A stretch of 64,000 bases of DNA from NCBI GenBank assembly GCA_038326775.1, contig JBBQKJ010000009.1, forward strand, positions 9,457-73,456, written 5' to 3'. The position numbers were made by a program, and so were the translations under genes. The stretch is from Candidatus Geothermincolia bacterium (GTDB lineage: Bacteria; Actinomycetota; Geothermincolia; Fen-727; Anoxymicrobiaceae). The notes under the pieces were generated by a model. That model was not told the origin of the DNA. It saw nothing but the letters and a program-made list of their open reading frames with translations, and made no database searches. Each line of letters starts with the position of its first letter. Position 1 is the first letter of the stretch. Shown here one piece after another: positions 57,157 through 63,014 of this stretch.

Positions 57157-58968
57157 TCAGGGAGCGGCCCCGACGCGGATCTTGACCGCGCTGCCGGCGG
57201 GGGCTTCGCTCAGCGCCGGCGGGTCCTGGCTGATGACCCGCCCCACCCTGGTCGGGTCGGGCGTTGCTTCGCTGATGACCGTGACCGTGAACCCGGCGCT
57301 CACAAGGGCGTTCTCCGCGTCGGCCTTCAACATGCTGACCACGTCGGGCACCTTTGGCGGCGTCTTGGCCACGGTTATGGTCACCTTGGACCCCTTGGGC
57401 GCGGAGTCGCCGCCGGCCGGGGACTGCGAGATGACGCTGCCCTCGGGCACGGTGCTGGAGGCCGCCGTCTGGACCTGCGCCTGCAGGCCCGCGTCAGAGA
57501 GCCTCTGGGTGGCGACTGCCTGGCTCGAACCGACGACATTGGGGACGGTGACCGTCTCCGGCCCCCTGCTGACGACGATGGAGACCGGACTGCCCTTCGA
57601 GGCCTGGGTGCCGGCCTGCGGGTCCTGGGACGAAACGGTCCCCTTGGCGACCGAGGTGCTGTACGCCTCGGTCACGTTCCCGAGCTCGAACCCGGCAGCC
57701 TTCAGTGCACCTTCGGCGTCCGTCCGGGACTGGCCGACGACCTCGGGTACCGCGCCGAGGTTCGGGCCCTTGCTCACCACCACCTCCACCGTTTCGCCCT
57801 TGTCGATTCTGGTCCCCGGGCCCGGGGACTGGCTGATCACGATGTCTTTGGGCTTTTCCGGGTCTATCACCGTTTTGGCGACCTTCATCTTGAGCCCGGC
57901 GTCAGCCAGGACCTGCTGGGCCTCGGTGACGGATTTTCCCATGATGCTCGGGACCGACACGCCCCCGGTGTTCCGCACGATGGCCCAGACGCCCACGCCG
58001 ATACCGGCGAGGATGACTATCACGATGATGGAGATCCAGAGCCAGGCGAGCGAGCGCCTTCCAGGTGGAGCGCCCGCGACCGCGGGATATGCCCGGGTGG
58101 CGCCCGGCGCCGCTTCGTCCCTGGGGAGCACCGGGGTCGCGTACACAGGGGTGCCCTCGAGGGAGCGCTCGAGGTCTCGGCGCATTTCCACGGCGTTCTG
58201 GTAGCGGTTCTGGGGGTTCTTGGCGAGGGCTTTCATGACCACGGCTTCGAGCCCCGGCGAGACATCGGGGTTGATCATCGAGGGAGGAAGGGGGTCTTCC
58301 CGCACGTGTTTGTAGGCTATGGAAACGGGGTTGTCGCCGTCGAAGGGCACCCTGCCCGTGAGCATCTCGTAGAGCACGACCCCGAGAGAGTAGAGGTCGG
58401 AACGCGGGTCAGCGGCGCGGCCCTGGGCCTGTTCGGGGCTTATGTACTGGGCGGTGCCCATGATGGTCCCGGTCTGGGTCATGGCCGAGCCGCCCGCGGT
58501 GCGGGCGATGCCGAAGTCCATGACCTTGGTCTGGTTGTCGTAGGTGACAATGGTGTTCTGCGGCTTTATGTCGCGGTGAACGATGCCCTGGGCGTGGGCC
58601 GCCTCCAGCGCCAGGCAGATGGACATGGCGATCTCGACCGCCCTTTCAGGGAGAAGGGGGCCGCCCTGGAGGATGATGTCCTTGAGGTCGCGCCCCTGGA
58701 CGTATTCCATCACCAGGTAGTAGGTGCCGTCCTCGATGCCCCAGTCGTAGACGTTGACGATATTGGTCTGGTTGAGGTTGGCGGCGGCCTGCGCCTCCTG
58801 GCGGAACCTGGCGATGAACACCTCGTCTTTGGCGAACTGGGGGTGGAGTAGCTTCACCGCGACTGTGCGGCCGAGCAGGTTGTCGCTGGCCCTGTAGACA
58901 TCGGCCATGCCGCCCGTGCCGATCAACTGTTCGAGCTCATACCGGGAATTCAGTATCCTGCCGACCAT
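57157..58968 (-). CDS. pknB: PASTA-domain Ser/Thr protein kinase
   Basis: GTGGMADVY, VAVK, HRDIKPQN, DFGIAR, SPEQA; one TM; four PASTA repeats. Confidence 0.95.
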   Translation of the reverse strand: MVGRILNSRYELEQLIGTGGMADVYRASDNLLGRTVAVKLLHPQFAKDEVFIARFRQEAQAAANLNQTNIVNVYDWGIEDGTYYLVMEYVQGRDLKDIILQGGPLLPERAVEIAMSICLALEAAHAQGIVHRDIKPQNTIVTYDNQTKVMDFGIARTAGGSAMTQTGTIMGTAQYISPEQAQGRAADPRSDLYSLGVVLYEMLTGRVPFDGDNPVSIAYKHVREDPLPPSMINPDVSPGLEAVVMKALAKNPQNRYQNAVEMRRDLERSLEGTPVYATPVLPRDEAAPGATRAYPAVAGAPPGRRSLAWLWISIIVIVILAGIGVGVWAIVRNTGGVSVPSIMGKSVTEAQQVLADAGLKMKVAKTVIDPEKPKDIVISQSPGPGTRIDKGETVEVVVSKGPNLGAVPEVVGQSRTDAEGALKAAGFELGNVTEAYSTSVAKGTVSSQDPQAGTQASKGSPVSIVVSRGPETVTVPNVVGSSQAVATQRLSDAGLQAQVQTAASSTVPEGSVISQSPAGGDSAPKGSKVTITVAKTPPKVPDVVSMLKADAENALVSAGFTVTVISEATPDPTRVGRVISQDPPALSEAPAGSAVKIRVGAAP

Positions 58969-59010: not shown

Positions 59011-59520
59011 TCACCTGGCCTCGAAAAATACCTTCGCCGGGCTGCCGCAGACGGGGCATTTTTCCGGGATGCTGCCGTCGGTGACGTACCCGCACACCTC
59101 GCAGATGTAGTAAGTGGGGTCTTCCTCGGCGAGAAGGTGCTCCAGGGCTTTTTCGTAGAGCTTGGCGTGGACCTCCTCCACATCGCGGGCCCAGGTTAAC
59201 ATCCGGGCGGTGTTCTCGTCTCCGGCCTCTTCGGCCCTGGCTATGAAGTCGCTGTAGTGCACCTGGGCGATCCTGGTCTCCCTCGCGAACGATTCGGACA
59301 GGTTGGTCTCGGTATCCTTGACCTCGCCCAGCAGCCGCAGGTTGTTGCGACCGTGTATCGCCTCAGACTCCGCTATGGCGCGAAAAAGCTTTGCGACGCT
59401 GGCGTAATCCTCCTTGTCCGCGTGTTCCGCGTAGACCTTTAGTCTGACGCTGGCCTTGGCCTCGCCCTCGTATGCCTGGTGCAGACCGTCCTGAATCGAT
59501 TCATCCGCCAAATCATTCAC
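59011..59520 (-). CDS. Rubrerythrin
   Basis: Di-iron ExxH motifs (EAIH, EEVH) and C-terminal rubredoxin CEVC...CPVC. Confidence 0.92.
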   Translation of the reverse strand: MNDLADESIQDGLHQAYEGEAKASVRLKVYAEHADKEDYASVAKLFRAIAESEAIHGRNNLRLLGEVKDTETNLSESFARETRIAQVHYSDFIARAEEAGDENTARMLTWARDVEEVHAKLYEKALEHLLAEEDPTYYICEVCGYVTDGSIPEKCPVCGSPAKVFFEAR

Positions 59521-59540
59521 CCCCGAGCAGTCTTATACGG

Positions 59541-59774
59541 TCAATCCTTCTTTTTCCTGACGTAAACCTTTATCTCGCCCTGGTCCTCCTCGACGGCGAC
59601 GCAATCGTTGCCGGTCTTGTCGCACCAGGCGCGCATGTCGCTCTTGATGCCTGCGTCGTCGGCGATGACCTCGAGGACCTCTCCCGCGGAAAGCTCCTTG
59701 ATGGCCTGGGAGGTCTTGACGATTGGCATCGGGCAGTACAGCCCCACGCAGTCGATCGTGTGGTCCGCTTCCAT
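59541..59774 (-). CDS. tusA: TusA/SirA sulfur carrier
   Basis: IDCVGLYCPMP, LEVIADD, W.DKTGN. Confidence 0.92.
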   Translation of the reverse strand: MEADHTIDCVGLYCPMPIVKTSQAIKELSAGEVLEVIADDAGIKSDMRAWCDKTGNDCVAVEEDQGEIKVYVRKKKD

Positions 59775-59802
59775 GTCACACCTCCGTGGCGGGGCCCGAC
59801 CC

Positions 59803-60282
59803 CTATATGAACAGGTTTACCTTCGCGTCAGAGGCGATGCCAAGGTAGGTGGCGGCCCCGGCGACCTCCTCCACCTCGTCGATGAAGTCATCTTTACTCA
59901 GGCCCATCAACGCCATAGAGGTCGTGCAGGCGATGAACTTTACGCCCTGCTCCCTGGCGAGGGCTATCATCTCCTCGAGCGACGGCATCCGGTACGTCTT
60001 CATCATCGACTTCATGGCGCCGGTCCCCATGCCCAGCATGTTCATTTTGGACATCTTCAACCGCCGGGCGCTCCCGCGCTTCATGAGCCCCATCATCCAC
60101 TGCATGAAGCTCTTGCCGCCCCTGGCCACCCTCTTCTTCTTGATGACGCCGAGCCCCCAGAACGTGAAGAACATGGTGACGTCCATGCCCATGGAGGCGC
60201 CCGTGTTGGCGAGGTTGAACGCGGCCAGCGCCCGGTCCAGGTCGTCGCTGAACACGATAAGGGTCATCTTTTCTTCACTCAT
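59803..60282 (-). CDS. DsrE2-like (DsrE/DsrF/DsrH family) sulfurtransferase
   Basis: FSDDLDRA, MFFTFWGL, IACTTSM.LMG, GAATYL, NLFI. Confidence 0.9.
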   Translation of the reverse strand: MSEEKMTLIVFSDDLDRALAAFNLANTGASMGMDVTMFFTFWGLGVIKKKRVARGGKSFMQWMMGLMKRGSARRLKMSKMNMLGMGTGAMKSMMKTYRMPSLEEMIALAREQGVKFIACTTSMALMGLSKDDFIDEVEEVAGAATYLGIASDAKVNLFI

Positions 60283-60363
60283 GTCACCTCTCCTTGCTCC
60301 TCCGGCGGGTGGGTTGGGAATCGGGTGGCCGCTTTTCCGCCCGAGTGGAGGAGGCCGGCCACG

Positions 60364-60555
60364 TCAGCGCGGAGGCTCCCCGCAGGACGGGCAGGTCTCC
60401 ACCCCTTCCCGCACGGGCTTGCCACAGCGGACGCATTCGATTATCACCGTCTTGCAAGCCACACAGAAGACCGCCTCTTCCCGGACATCTTCTATCTCGA
60501 CGTCGCAGTAAGGGCAGTGGCACGCATCAACCCTTTCTTCGCCTGCTCCTCCCAT
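60364..60555 (-). CDS. Small Cys-rich double zinc-ribbon protein
   Basis: 63 aa with four CxxC pairs (CPYC, CVAC, CVRC, CPSC); starts 2 bp after the iscU stop with a GGAGG RBS. Confidence 0.75.
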   Translation of the reverse strand: MGGAGEERVDACHCPYCDVEIEDVREEAVFCVACKTVIIECVRCGKPVREGVETCPSCGEPPR

Positions 60556-60557
60556 GC

Positions 60558-60956
60558 TCAGCCCTCCTTCGCGGTCTTCTTGCTCTTGTAGTCCTCGATG
60601 GCGATGTGCAGCGCGTCCGCCCCCAGGTTGGAGCAGTGCATCTTGTTTTCGGGCAGCCCGCCGAGCTGCTCCGCGACGTCTCCGCGCGATATCTGAAGGG
60701 CCTCGTCGAGCGTCTTGCCCTTCGCCATCTCGCTCACCATGCTCGAGACCGCGATGGCGGCCCCGCACCCGAACGTCTTGAACTTGACGTCCTCGAGACG
60801 GTCGTCGTCCCCGACCTTGACGTAAAACGTCATCATGTCGCCGCAGACGGGGTTTCCGACCTCGCCTACCCCGTCAGCGTCCTCGATCTCGCCGACGTTG
60901 CGGGGGTTCATGAAGTGGTCCATGACCGTGTCGCTGTACTGCGCTATCTCAACCAC
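60558..60956 (-). CDS. iscU: Fe-S scaffold IscU/NifU-N (MisU-like)
   Basis: DHFMNPRNVG, GNPVCGD, FGCGAAIA, LPENKMHCSNL. Confidence 0.95.
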   Translation of the reverse strand: MVEIAQYSDTVMDHFMNPRNVGEIEDADGVGEVGNPVCGDMMTFYVKVGDDDRLEDVKFKTFGCGAAIAVSSMVSEMAKGKTLDEALQISRGDVAEQLGGLPENKMHCSNLGADALHIAIEDYKSKKTAKEG

Positions 60957-62130
60957 CTCCCTGCTTAAGGAACTTATCGTATAGCGGAGACATCTGCCGC
61001 AGCCTCTCCACTATTGGCGGCAGTGTCTCGATGACATAATCTACGTCCTCGGGCTTGTTGTCGAGCCCGAAGCTGAACAGCAGCGAGCCCTGTGCTATCT
61101 CCGCCGGGATTTCGCAGGCGGTAAGAACGTGCGAGCCCTTGAGCGCGCGCGAAGTGCAGGCTGAGCCGCTCGAGACCGCGATCCCCAGCTGGTCCAGGAA
61201 GAGAAGCATCCCCTCACCTTCTATGAACTCCACCACGAAGCTCGCGTTCCAGGGGAGCCGCTGGTCGGGATGGCCCGTGGCGGTAAGCCTGGGAATGGCC
61301 GCCGGCAGCCTCTCGAGCAGTGCCTGGCTCATAACGCGGAGGTGTTCGGCCCGTCGCTCCATGTCCGTCACGGCGAGCTCGGCCGCTTTGCCCATACCCA
61401 CGATCCCCGGCATGTTCTCAGTGCCACCCCGCCGGCCGCCTTCCTGGACACCTCCGTCCAAGAGCGGCATCAGCCGCCGGCCTTTCTTTACCCAGAGGGC
61501 CCCGACGCCCTTGGGGCCGTAGAGAAGGTCGGAGGCGATCGACATGGCGTCGGCGCCGACGTCCTCGACATCGATCGGAACGCAACCGGCGGCGGCCACC
61601 GCGTCCGTATGGAACGGGATTCCCTTTTCGCCGGCCACCGCGGCTATCTGCCTGACCGGCTGGATAGTCCCGACCTCGCCGTTCGCGACCATCACCGAGA
61701 CCAGCACCGTTTCGGGCGTGATCGCGTCACGCACCGCCTCCGGGTCGACCATCCCGGAGGAGTCCACGGCGACCTCGGTGACCTCCATTCCGAACTTCTC
61801 CAGTGTCCTCGCGGCATGCAGCACCGAGAAGTGCTCAACCGCCGACACCACCACGTGGTTACCTTTCTTCCTGGCGGCCCAGGCGATGCCCTTGACCGCC
61901 AGGTTGTTGGCCTCGGTGCCGCCCGAGGTGAAGATTATCTCCTCGGGCCGGGCCTTGATGAGCGCGGCCACCTTCTCGCGCGCCTCATCGAGGGCCAGCC
62001 TGGCGACGTCTCCCCACCCGTGCAGGGAAGACGGGTTGCCGAAGCTCTCGGTGAAATACGGCCGCATCGCCTCCACGACCTCGTGGAGTACCGGGGTCGC
62101 CGCGTAGTGGTCCAGGTAGACTTCGGGCAT
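60949..62130 (-). CDS. iscS: IscS/NifS-like cysteine desulfurase homologue lacking the PLP lysine
   Basis: GNPSS.H, FTSGGTEANN, EH.SV, SSGSACTS present; the canonical SxHKxYGPKG reads ASDLLYGPKG. Confidence 0.9.
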   Translation of the reverse strand: MPEVYLDHYAATPVLHEVVEAMRPYFTESFGNPSSLHGWGDVARLALDEAREKVAALIKARPEEIIFTSGGTEANNLAVKGIAWAARKKGNHVVVSAVEHFSVLHAARTLEKFGMEVTEVAVDSSGMVDPEAVRDAITPETVLVSVMVANGEVGTIQPVRQIAAVAGEKGIPFHTDAVAAAGCVPIDVEDVGADAMSIASDLLYGPKGVGALWVKKGRRLMPLLDGGVQEGGRRGGTENMPGIVGMGKAAELAVTDMERRAEHLRVMSQALLERLPAAIPRLTATGHPDQRLPWNASFVVEFIEGEGMLLFLDQLGIAVSSGSACTSRALKGSHVLTACEIPAEIAQGSLLFSFGLDNKPEDVDYVIETLPPIVERLRQMSPLYDKFLKQGGG

Positions 62131-62151
62131 TCTTTTTCCTCCAGTCGACCG

Positions 62152-62844
62152 TCAAATGGAATCGAAGTAACCGGCCAGTGCGTCCTGGTCCAGCACCACC
62201 AGGTGCTTGTCCCGGGTCCCCATGATGCCCTCTTTCTTAAGCCGGCTCATAACCCGGGAGACTGTCTCCTCGGTGGAGCCGATGAGCCCGGAGATGTCGC
62301 GGTTCGTGAGCGGGGTGTCGAGCTTCTCGGCGCAGTTCTTGTAGATGCCTCGCTCCTGGTCCAGGGTCTTCATAAGGATGCAGGCCACCCTCTTCTCTAC
62401 CCTCTCGCCCGCGATGCAGCGCGCCTTCATGTACGAGGAGTCGAGTTTCTGCCCGACGAGCTTCAGCAGGTGTCTCTCGAAAGCCGGGTCGGCGGCGATG
62501 ACGGAGAGCAGGTCTTCCCTGGGCACTTTCCAGACCTGGGACTCTTTCCTGGCAACCGCGGAGAACGGGTAGTAGTCCTGGCCGTACGCCACCCCTTCCC
62601 CGAACACGTCCGAGGGGAAGATGAAGTGGAAGATATATACCTTGCCGTCACCGTGGACGACGTTGGCCTCGATGACCCCGGACTCGACGACGTAGAGGAA
62701 AGCGGCCTCATCGCCCTCGAAGAACACGAACTGACCCCGATCGAGGCTCTGAGAAGTGAACCGGTCCTTCAGCTTGCCCCTCAGGTCTTTCCTGGCCTGC
62801 GAGACAAAATCGTCAAGGACGTCATGTTTGACCACTGCTTCCAC
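62152..62844 (-). CDS. Crp/Fnr family transcriptional regulator
   Basis: cNMP-like domain (FFEGD, FGEG), VEKRVA, HTH LTNRDISGLIGSTEETVSR. Confidence 0.92.
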   Translation of the reverse strand: MEAVVKHDVLDDFVSQARKDLRGKLKDRFTSQSLDRGQFVFFEGDEAAFLYVVESGVIEANVVHGDGKVYIFHFIFPSDVFGEGVAYGQDYYPFSAVARKESQVWKVPREDLLSVIAADPAFERHLLKLVGQKLDSSYMKARCIAGERVEKRVACILMKTLDQERGIYKNCAEKLDTPLTNRDISGLIGSTEETVSRVMSRLKKEGIMGTRDKHLVVLDQDALAGYFDSI

Positions 62845-63014
62845 CTTTCCTCACCGGCACCCGCTGCCAACTGCCGTCTTCAGCATATTGTACAACCATC
62901 ACCCCACGCGTCGCGCTCCTGTTTTGCACCTAGCAGGTATCGTTATTCGTTATCGAGGCGCGAAATCATCTTTTCTACGCCGGTGGACGCCTTTAGCATG
63001 GAAGGCACGTTGAG

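Follow-up and report, generated by a model that had tools for sequence, protein, structure and literature searches.

The closest described counterpart of the protein discussed here is IscS (IscS2) of the archaeon Archaeoglobus fulgidus. This protein was reported to be inactive and to contribute one of its Cys residues as a ligand of the IscU-bound [2Fe-2S] cluster (PMC7585200, PMC8918507). It binds pyridoxamine phosphate (PMP) or pyridoxal phosphate (PLP) non-covalently, its D199K variant still held PMP and not PLP, and the same paper asks how A. fulgidus IscS-IscU assembles [2Fe-2S] without desulfurase activity (PMC8918507). IscS1 of Methanosarcina acetivorans also lacks the catalytic Lys and is encoded with IscU1 and four genes of unknown function (PMC7585200). 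We have analysed the window, that is the whole stretch of 64,000 nucleotides from contig JBBQKJ010000009.1 of a Candidatus Geothermincolia bacterium, and describe a Lys-less protein of the IscS/NifS family that it encodes (the window IscS). Our results suggest that this protein is probably a PLP-dead partner of IscU, serving as Cys ligand and/or persulfide acceptor and fed by a TusA/DsrE2 relay.

Active-site residues and fold of the window IscS

The window IscS is encoded by an intact open reading frame (ORF) of 393 amino acids (aa) with an ATG start. Its translation includes GADAMSIASDLLYGPKGVGALWVKKG, and the full-length protein of the class V aminotransferase fold also includes SIASDLLYGPKG. 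Pfam family Aminotran_5 (PF00266) matches residues 4-366 (4.6e-75). The best NCBIfam model is NifS (TIGR03402), with 488.6 bits below the cut-off of 530.75; the score with the IscS model (TIGR02006) is also below its cut-off (359.8 vs 643.2). According to the original prediction, made from the letters of this DNA, the SxHKxYGPKG motif reads ASDLLYGPKG, with Asp201 and with Leu202 encoded by CTT at 61525-61527. Both the codon check and the alignment bear this out. The key codons and the overlap with iscU were checked by script, and E. coli residue numbers come from alignment with Escherichia coli K-12 IscS. The positions are as follows:

60949..62130, minus strand: gene of the window IscS, 393 aa
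61525..61530, minus strand: codon pair for Asp201 and Leu202, replacing E. coli His205 and Lys206 (codon check, alignment)
61528-61530, minus strand: Asp201, codon GAC, at E. coli His205 (codon check)
61525-61527, minus strand: Leu202, codon CTT, at the E. coli Schiff-base Lys206 of SxHK (codon check)
61594-61596, minus strand: Ala179, codon GCC, at E. coli Gln183, the PLP contact of DAxQ (codon check)
61678-61680, minus strand: Gly151, at E. coli Asn155 (codon check, alignment)
61078-61080, minus strand: Leu351, at E. coli Arg354, the substrate-carboxylate Arg (codon check, alignment)
61156-61158, minus strand: Cys325, codon TGC, kept (E. coli Cys328), in the mobile loop SSGSACTS (codon check, alignment)

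Five PLP or substrate positions are changed in the window IscS, namely the equivalents of Asn155, Gln183, His205, Lys206 and Arg354. In active IscS/NifS, Asn155 is a PLP contact like Gln183; both it and His205, the neighbour of the Schiff-base Lys, are replaced here. The loss of the His, the Lys and the DAxQ Gln had been pointed out before, correctly, but that tally was incomplete, as Asn155 and Arg354 are lost too, which makes five positions and not three. The loop Cys, the His of EH.SV and the reading frame are intact as had been stated: Cys325 is kept, and so is His100 (CAC), which corresponds to E. coli His104. Asp176 (E. coli Asp180), Thr72 (E. coli Thr76) and Thr237 (E. coli Thr243) are kept as well.

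Lys207 of the GPK sequence was considered as a stand-in Schiff-base Lys and rejected. Canonical relatives carry YGPKG after the catalytic Lys too, and GPQG in several members of the clade of the window IscS further rules out this substitute.

In E. coli IscS, residues His104, Asp180, Gln183, Lys206 and Cys328 are indispensable for activity, the variants H104Q, D180G, Q183E and K206A have lost desulfurase activity, and Arg354 was studied as a conserved active-site residue (PMC9978102). By analogy with these variants and with A. fulgidus IscS, the window IscS would be without desulfurase activity. It could be argued that the protein is still an enzyme, either a desulfurase or one with another PLP/PMP-dependent activity, for instance with free PLP forming external aldimines in the absence of an internal aldimine. 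His100 that stacks on PLP, Asp176 at the pyridine N, and Thr72 and Thr237 on the phosphate side would be in place for this; moreover, PLP binding is not entirely lost in E. coli IscS K206A (PMC9978102), and A. fulgidus IscS carries its PMP or PLP. However, five catalytic or binding positions have been lost together, E. coli K206A, Q183E and H104Q are inactive, and inactive A. fulgidus IscS held PMP rather than PLP even with the D199K change. In addition, the Lys position varies freely in the clade (L/M/I/Q/R/A), which indicates an unconstrained site and not a new catalytic residue. An enzymatic role of the window IscS is thus very improbable in our opinion.

The loss pattern is the one seen in A. 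fulgidus IscS (PDB 4eb5, 4eb7, 4hvk, 4r5f), which is the best structural match of the window IscS and also matches it in sequence (phmmer 3.6e-112). The alignment with 4eb5 shows that in A. fulgidus IscS the His-Lys pair is replaced by Asn-Asp, Gln183 by Ala and Arg354 by Leu; both proteins keep the loop Cys, His104 and Asp180. The original prediction had described A. fulgidus IscS as inactive with Asp at the Lys site, in agreement with this alignment and with the literature (PMC8918507, PMC7585200). Both proteins are encoded beside IscU. The differences are that the residues at the His-Lys positions are Asn-Asp in A. fulgidus and Asp-Leu in the window, that A. fulgidus IscS keeps Asn155 where the window IscS has Gly, and that the window IscS is bacterial (Actinomycetota, Geothermincolia-type) whereas A. 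fulgidus IscS is archaeal. The PMP/PLP content and the role as Cys ligand are known from A. fulgidus IscS only. M. acetivorans IscS1 resembles the window IscS in the absence of the catalytic Lys and in having iscU in the same gene cluster (PMC7585200).

The AlphaFold2 model of the window IscS, built from 46 Lys-less sequences, has a predicted local distance difference test score (pLDDT) of 92.9 and a predicted template modelling score (pTM) of 0.91. Only the Cys loop, residues 324-329, has pLDDT below 50, which fits the mobile loop of IscS. The top Foldseek match of the model is 4hvk, A. fulgidus IscS, with a template modelling (TM) score of 0.92/0.98, a root-mean-square deviation of 1.1 and 46% identity; TM scores against IscS/NFS1 structures are 0.92-0.96. 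The window IscS resembles canonical group I IscS/NifS proteins (E. coli IscS, 1p3w/3lvl; MisS of the minimal Fe-S system MIS of anaerobes) in its Aminotran_5 fold and dimer-type architecture, and like them it has a mobile Cys loop and is paired with IscU. It differs from them in the absence of Lys206, His205, Gln183, Asn155 and Arg354, in scores below the NifS and IscS equivalog cut-offs, and in its linkage to TusA/DsrE2.

The top PDB sequence matches of the window IscS are 406-aa chains named 'cysteine desulfurase' (9wep, 9wer, 9wew, 9wf8, 9wfb, 9wfe, 9wfy). These chains vary at active-site positions: 9wfy has AHLMY, DAAPS and VVFSF where 9wep has AHKMY, DAVQS and VRFSF. Judging from the sequences, the series looks like engineered variants at residues that the window IscS has lost. 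We found no paper for the series 9wep-9wfy.

Conservation and phylogeny of the Lys-less lineage

The close-homologue set comprised 120 proteins with 68-100% identity to the window IscS. Since the motif pattern missed 16 of them, the motif was readable in 104, all of which lack the Lys and have Asp at the His position. The residues found at the Lys position are L (48), M (45), I (4), R (3), Q (3) and A (1). The Gln of DAxQ is absent from all 120 proteins and SSGSAC is present in all 120. Pairwise dN/dS (ratio of nonsynonymous to synonymous substitution rates) against seven orthologues is 0.11-0.19, with dS of about 0.9-1.1, which is near saturation. The gene is under purifying selection. Both motif codons are identical in a contig of run X5, which comes from a different study (record 28, 61312-61556), and in a contig of run X4 (record 23, 61474-62900). 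Sequencing error at the motif is excluded, as had been argued before from the sequence itself.

Because catalytic residues are lost, one could suspect a pseudogene in decay, a lesion confined to the strain or a misassembly, but nothing else speaks for any of these. The frame is intact, dN/dS is low, the codons recur in contigs of other runs and the fold prediction is confident. Furthermore, the Lys is missing from all 104 readable close homologues and from 69 of the 80 loci fetched from many phyla. This explanation is refuted, and we give it practically no weight. Strain-specific decay, with the Lys kept in close orthologues, had been named as a possible outcome by the original prediction, and no readable orthologue keeps it. 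Taken together, the five losses, the purifying selection, the coupling to IscU described below, and the loss pattern and structural match shared with A. fulgidus IscS support the earlier view of a desulfurase-dead Fe-S partner, and the sequence data point to a stable, selected pseudo-enzyme with the IscS/NifS fold and a retained mobile-loop Cys.

Do these residues vary together in a wider set of proteins? From a search of 1.84 billion cluster representatives we took the 150 best, which have 40-54% identity to the window IscS, for alignment. Lys is present in 125 of these and absent from 24, and one is a fragment. With the window IscS and its canonical paralogue added, there are 126 Lys-containing and 25 Lys-less rows. 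Gln183 is kept in 121/126 Lys-containing rows vs 1/25 Lys-less rows, and Arg354 in 125/126 vs 2/25. The corresponding counts are 125/126 and 25/25 for the loop Cys, and 126/126 and 25/25 for Asp180. Of the 25 Lys-less rows, 21 have retained His104 and two have gaps there. In the pooled alignment, Asn155 is present in 131/132 canonical rows vs 9/94 Lys-less rows, and the loop Cys in 93/94 Lys-less rows.

FastTree (160 rows) places the window IscS in a 13-row clade (support 100), which is nested in a larger clade of 30 rows (support 96), 29 of them Lys-less and the other one P0122. A separate Lys-less clade of four rows (support 99) contains P0158, the representative nearest to A. fulgidus IscS (phmmer 1.9e-128 against 4eb5), and this clade of the A. 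fulgidus type, with Asn-Asp, is set among Lys-containing rows with support 82-87. In the quick IQ-TREE tree (69 rows), a branch with an SH-like approximate likelihood-ratio test value (SH-aLRT) of 88 splits 42 from 27 rows. The larger side consists of 40 Lys-containing rows, P0172 and the Lys-less P0166. The smaller side holds the 26 other Lys-less rows, including the Asn-Asp clade of the A. fulgidus type, and P0122, which keeps Lys. The fewest changes of the Lys state are four with FastTree and three with IQ-TREE. The two trees, which have no outgroup root, disagree on the deep branching and neither supports it strongly; one origin of the Lys-less state is possible.

The representative P0122, which lies inside the Lys-less clade, has kept His-Lys and has Ala for Gln183, Leu for Arg354 and Ile for Thr243. 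Such a sequence might represent either an intermediate or a reversion.

By these trees the window IscS is a member of a large, multi-phylum Lys-less lineage. The original prediction had seen in it a separate bacterial version with a different substitution. The trees do not agree with a separate version, and the particular substitution carries no weight, as six different residues occur at the Lys position within its own clade.

Sulfur-carrier genes and the proposed supply of sulfur

The gene of the window IscS belongs to a row of genes on the minus strand:

62152..62844, minus strand: Crp/Fnr-family regulator, directly upstream of the IscS gene (Pfam cNMP_binding and HTH_Crp_2)
60558..60956, minus strand: IscU/NifU-type scaffold, 132 aa (Pfam NifU_N 8.3e-51)
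60364..60555, minus strand: zinc-ribbon protein, 63 aa, nine Cys in the pattern CxCPxC...CxxC...CxxC...CxxC (Pfam zinc-ribbon and DZR)
59803..60282, minus strand: DsrE2-like sulfur-carrier protein, 159 aa (Pfam DrsE_2, PF13686, 6e-53)
59541..59774, minus strand: TusA-family sulfur carrier, 77 aa, with a CPxP motif (Pfam TusA, PF01206, 1.8e-25)
59011..59520, minus strand: rubrerythrin, last of the conserved Geothermincolia-type gene row (Pfam Rubrerythrin and rubredoxin-like domain)

The TGA stop of the IscS gene (60949-60951) and the GTG start of iscU (60954-60956) lie in a shared stretch of 8 nucleotides, GTGGTTGA, so the overlap with iscU that had been described is real. From the sequence, translation of the gene is coupled to that of a complete IscU. 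This IscU scores above the cut-off of NCBIfam NifU_clost (TIGR03419; 200.2 against 187.9), and at least 95% of 71 aligned copies share its Cys38, Asp40, Cys64, His107 and Cys108. For the zinc-ribbon protein, 41 copies were aligned, and each of the nine Cys columns shows conservation of at least 85%. The DsrE2-like protein is below the NCBIfam DsrE2 cut-off (91.5 against 210), with Cys119 conserved in at least 95% of 34 copies. The TusA of the window is below the cut-off of the NCBIfam TusA equivalog (51.5 against 78), and no variation occurs at Cys14, Pro15, Met16 and Pro17 among 30 operon-linked copies.

Linkage to the sulfur carriers was surveyed in three sets of loci. In set 1, one genome per species was scanned, giving 80 loci, of which 69 are Lys-less and 11 Lys-containing. 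The genomes are labelled Actinomycetota, Chloroflexota/Dehalococcoidia, Smithella, Aminicenantes, Nitrospirota, Elusimicrobiota, WOR-3, Latescibacterota, Zixibacteria, Bathyarchaeia and Methanosarcinales, among others. Within 3 kb, IscU is found at 59/69 Lys-less and 11/11 Lys-containing loci, TusA at 54/69 vs 0/11, DsrE2 at 33/69 vs 0/11, either carrier at 56/69 vs 0/11 and the zinc ribbon at 32/69 vs 0/11. When only well-flanked loci are counted, i.e. those with at least 1.5 kb upstream and at least 2.5 kb downstream, TusA and/or DsrE2 lie within 3 kb at 42/46 Lys-less vs 0/8 Lys-containing loci (Fisher p 4.8e-7).

Set 2 consisted of 20 further canonical Actinomycetota loci with flanks of about 4.5 kb, all with Lys, Gln and Arg; three unpublished genomes were excluded. 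TusA or DsrE2 is not found nearby at 18 of the 20. At one exception, L132 (G020:C11, 3147-6829), the canonical gene with His-Lys, Gln and Arg lies directly upstream of a Lys-less copy with His-Leu, which is followed by IscU, the zinc ribbon, DsrE2 and TusA, so that active and dead paralogues appear to stand in one gene row. The other, L135, is taken up below. Set 3, an archaeal phylum sample and four genomes already seen, gave 37 loci with 1.5 kb flanks, four of which were already in set 1. Within 1.5 kb, TusA and/or a DsrE2-like gene is present at 11/14 Lys-less vs 0/23 canonical loci. One of these loci is Archaeoglobus-like (L181): its product is, by eye, about 85-90% identical to the A. fulgidus IscS chain (4eb5), with TusA upstream and a DsrE2-like gene downstream, so that this locus carries both carriers as the window locus does. 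Overall, carrier genes stand at 2 of 50 distinct canonical loci, one of the two being beside a Lys-less operon. The carriers are downstream in Actinomycetota and Chloroflexota, while TusA is upstream in Nitrospirota and archaea; the linkage holds in both orders.

The IscU beside Lys-less IscS mostly has GCGAAIAVSS and HCSNLGA[DQ]AL (loci L012-L091). Beside most canonical IscS it has GCGAAIATSS and HCSNLA.EA, with exceptions such as L087, L088 and L091. This difference in IscU motifs may reflect co-evolution of the partners.

Based on these results we propose the following mechanism. The window IscS and IscU would be made together because their genes overlap, and would form a complex as in the solved A. 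fulgidus (IscS-IscU)2, in which Cys325 would reach the assembly site of IscU. There it may act as cluster ligand and/or persulfide carrier; by analogy with the A. fulgidus protein, Cys325 is a putative ligand or relay residue. Since such an IscS could not make persulfide from cysteine, an external sulfur supply would be needed. The TusA and DsrE2-like carriers of the same operon would be the likeliest route, loaded by a stand-alone canonical desulfurase or from sulfide/polysulfide, and sulfur would then presumably flow from TusA/DsrE2 to the window IscS. The nine-Cys zinc-ribbon protein is a candidate electron or metal donor, possibly rubredoxin-like, and may have a role in cluster assembly. 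The original prediction had left open whether the protein is a cluster ligand or a persulfide relay; with the TusA, DsrE2 and zinc-ribbon genes just downstream, the persulfide-relay half is favoured.

A second, canonical desulfurase had been proposed as something to search for, and it is present in the source assembly (114 contigs, 94.9% complete). A NifS/IscS-type paralogue at C2:84-1397, with SISGHKLYGPKG, DAVQT and RFSLGR, is 54% identical to the window IscS; it has His-Lys, Gln and Arg, and the contig ends 83 bases away from it. In another genome from this class (L122), the orthologue of this paralogue stands alone among unrelated genes. A canonical copy of this kind accompanies the Lys-less copy in the source genome and in all five other genomes checked (6/6), and none of the six IscS/NifS-like canonical copies of those five genomes has IscU within 1.5 kb. 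The source genome also has a further class V protein on contig C33, a second, stand-alone NifU_N protein, one SufB-like gene, two TusA-family genes and one rhodanese domain.

The main rival is a scaffold role with free sulfide: the window IscS would stabilise IscU and lend it a Cys ligand, the sulfur would be inorganic sulfide, and TusA and DsrE2 would merely be co-regulated for another pathway such as tRNA thiolation, molybdenum cofactor synthesis or sulfur detoxification. A sulfide hypothesis exists for A. fulgidus IscS-IscU (PMC8918507), sulfide can feed minimal Fe-S systems (PMC12192291), and homologues come from anoxic sediment, groundwater and permafrost-type metagenomes. The 4 of 46 well-flanked Lys-less loci that have neither carrier within 3 kb fit this explanation as well. 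On the other hand, linkage to TusA/DsrE2 across many phyla and in two gene orders would be difficult to account for if no function were shared. A search of the 94.9% complete genome found no DsrC, so these carriers do not belong to a Dsr pathway. For these reasons we hold supply by free sulfide to be unlikely, although it deserves more attention than any enzymatic role of the protein.

Several observations weigh against a PLP-dead partner fed by the carriers, and the four carrier-free loci just mentioned are among them. In set 3, 3 of the 14 Lys-less loci also have no carrier within 1.5 kb. The carrier linkage rests on gene neighbourhood, and the Fisher p overstates it because the loci are related, the Lys-less state having arisen few times (three to four changes at the fewest). 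L135 (G060:C7, 4027-5922) is canonical and Lys-containing and has TusA directly upstream. In E. coli the sulfur goes from IscS to TusA (PMC2854127), the reverse of our proposal, and IscU and TusA compete for IscS (PMC11302665). Trp45 and Glu49, which contact TusA in E. coli, are not conserved in the window IscS. Finally, the equivalents of His104, Asp180, Thr76 and Thr243 are kept, and non-covalent binding of PLP/PMP or some unusual PLP chemistry is possible.

The predicted complex of the window IscS with TusA is weak and belongs among the same points. Its score is 0.42, against 0.00 for the best of three controls, with at least 91% contact agreement among runs and partner pLDDT of at least 89, and it lends weak support to an interaction. 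The mark used for such predictions was reached by 58/80 solved complexes and 2/110 mismatched pairs; at scores of 0.60 or less, it was reached by just 7/80 solved complexes and by both of the passing mismatches. The pass may reflect likeness only, because the E. coli IscS-TusA complex is already solved (3lvj). When the residues that contact TusA in E. coli IscS were mapped across the family, no clear signal emerged; even in canonical relatives Trp45 and Glu49 are unconserved. The likeness to E. coli is that an IscS-family protein and a CPxP TusA are linked. The difference is that active E. coli IscS gives sulfur to TusA for tRNA thiolation, whereas the window locus would need transfer from TusA to IscS.

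The locus L135 has Asn at the Asp180 position (THNQHKCR).

It is possible, though tentative, that the relay-fed arrangement is general. There would then be a widespread minimal iron-sulfur cluster module in anaerobic bacteria and archaea, consisting of PLP-dead IscS, IscU, the nine-Cys zinc ribbon, DsrE2 and TusA, with mobilisation and assembly split between paralogues. The carriers, loaded by a stand-alone desulfurase or by environmental sulfide/polysulfide, would hand persulfide on to the loop Cys of a PLP-dead IscS bound to IscU, and the zinc ribbon would supply electrons or metal. MIS, which has a cysteine desulfurase (PMC12192291), is similar in that the row of the window consists of an iscS-iscU pair without hscBA, iscA and fdx, and different in that the desulfurase component of the window row is without catalytic residues. 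Apart from iscS and iscU, Pfam scans of the neighbouring ORFs gave zinc ribbon, DsrE2, TusA, rubrerythrin and Crp.

The rubrerythrin gene is syntenic in most of loci L012-L034. The Crp/Fnr regulator, which has no N-terminal Cys cluster, is directly upstream in most of L012-L022, the closest relatives, and about 2-3 kb away in L023-L034. Rubrerythrin and the Crp/Fnr regulator flanking the gene row are a hint of redox or oxidative-stress control. A scan for promoters and terminators gave nothing above shuffled expectation. Metatranscriptome run X19 includes contigs with 90-95% similarity to the genes for DsrE2, the zinc ribbon, IscU, IscS and Crp (59500-62900); they come from a relative and DNA carry-over is possible, so they are a weak hint that the operon is expressed. 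Aminicenantes-type loci such as L043-L045 encode IscU and the zinc ribbon as one fusion protein, with the zinc ribbon at the C-terminus of IscU, and the observations on this protein also concern L043-L048 and L051.

The closest named locus, L012 (DYIU01000002.1), has 84% identity and the full gene row. It is labelled as a metagenome-assembled genome of Acidimicrobium ferrooxidans; all its fellow close relatives bear the label Anoxymicrobiaceae, Geothermincolia or unclassified Actinomycetota, and the label of L012 may be wrong. Downstream of rubrerythrin, at 57157-58968 on the minus strand, there is a 603-aa ORF resembling Ser/Thr protein kinases, with a repeated C-terminal region of extracellular type that by eye is PknB/PASTA-like.

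Meaning for Lys-less IscS proteins

The kind of protein to which the window IscS belongs is already known, as it is a bacterial member of the kind typified by inactive A. fulgidus IscS. What looks new is the gene context of Lys-less IscS, with TusA/DsrE2 and the zinc ribbon. In the open-access literature we found no description of the breadth of the Lys-less IscS lineage in bacteria, nor of the joint loss of Asn155, Gln183, Lys206 and Arg354, nor of the persistent linkage to TusA, DsrE2 and the nine-Cys zinc-ribbon protein; earlier mention of these elsewhere is possible.

Based on the results obtained, Lys-less IscS is a conserved lineage in many bacterial phyla and not an archaeal oddity. This suggests that the annotation 'cysteine desulfurase' given by pipelines is wrong for a sizeable group of proteins. 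The open question about A. fulgidus becomes a concrete one, namely persulfide transfer from TusA/DsrE2 to the loop Cys and on to IscU. If it is true, the relay-fed module would answer how A. fulgidus IscS-IscU gets its sulfur.

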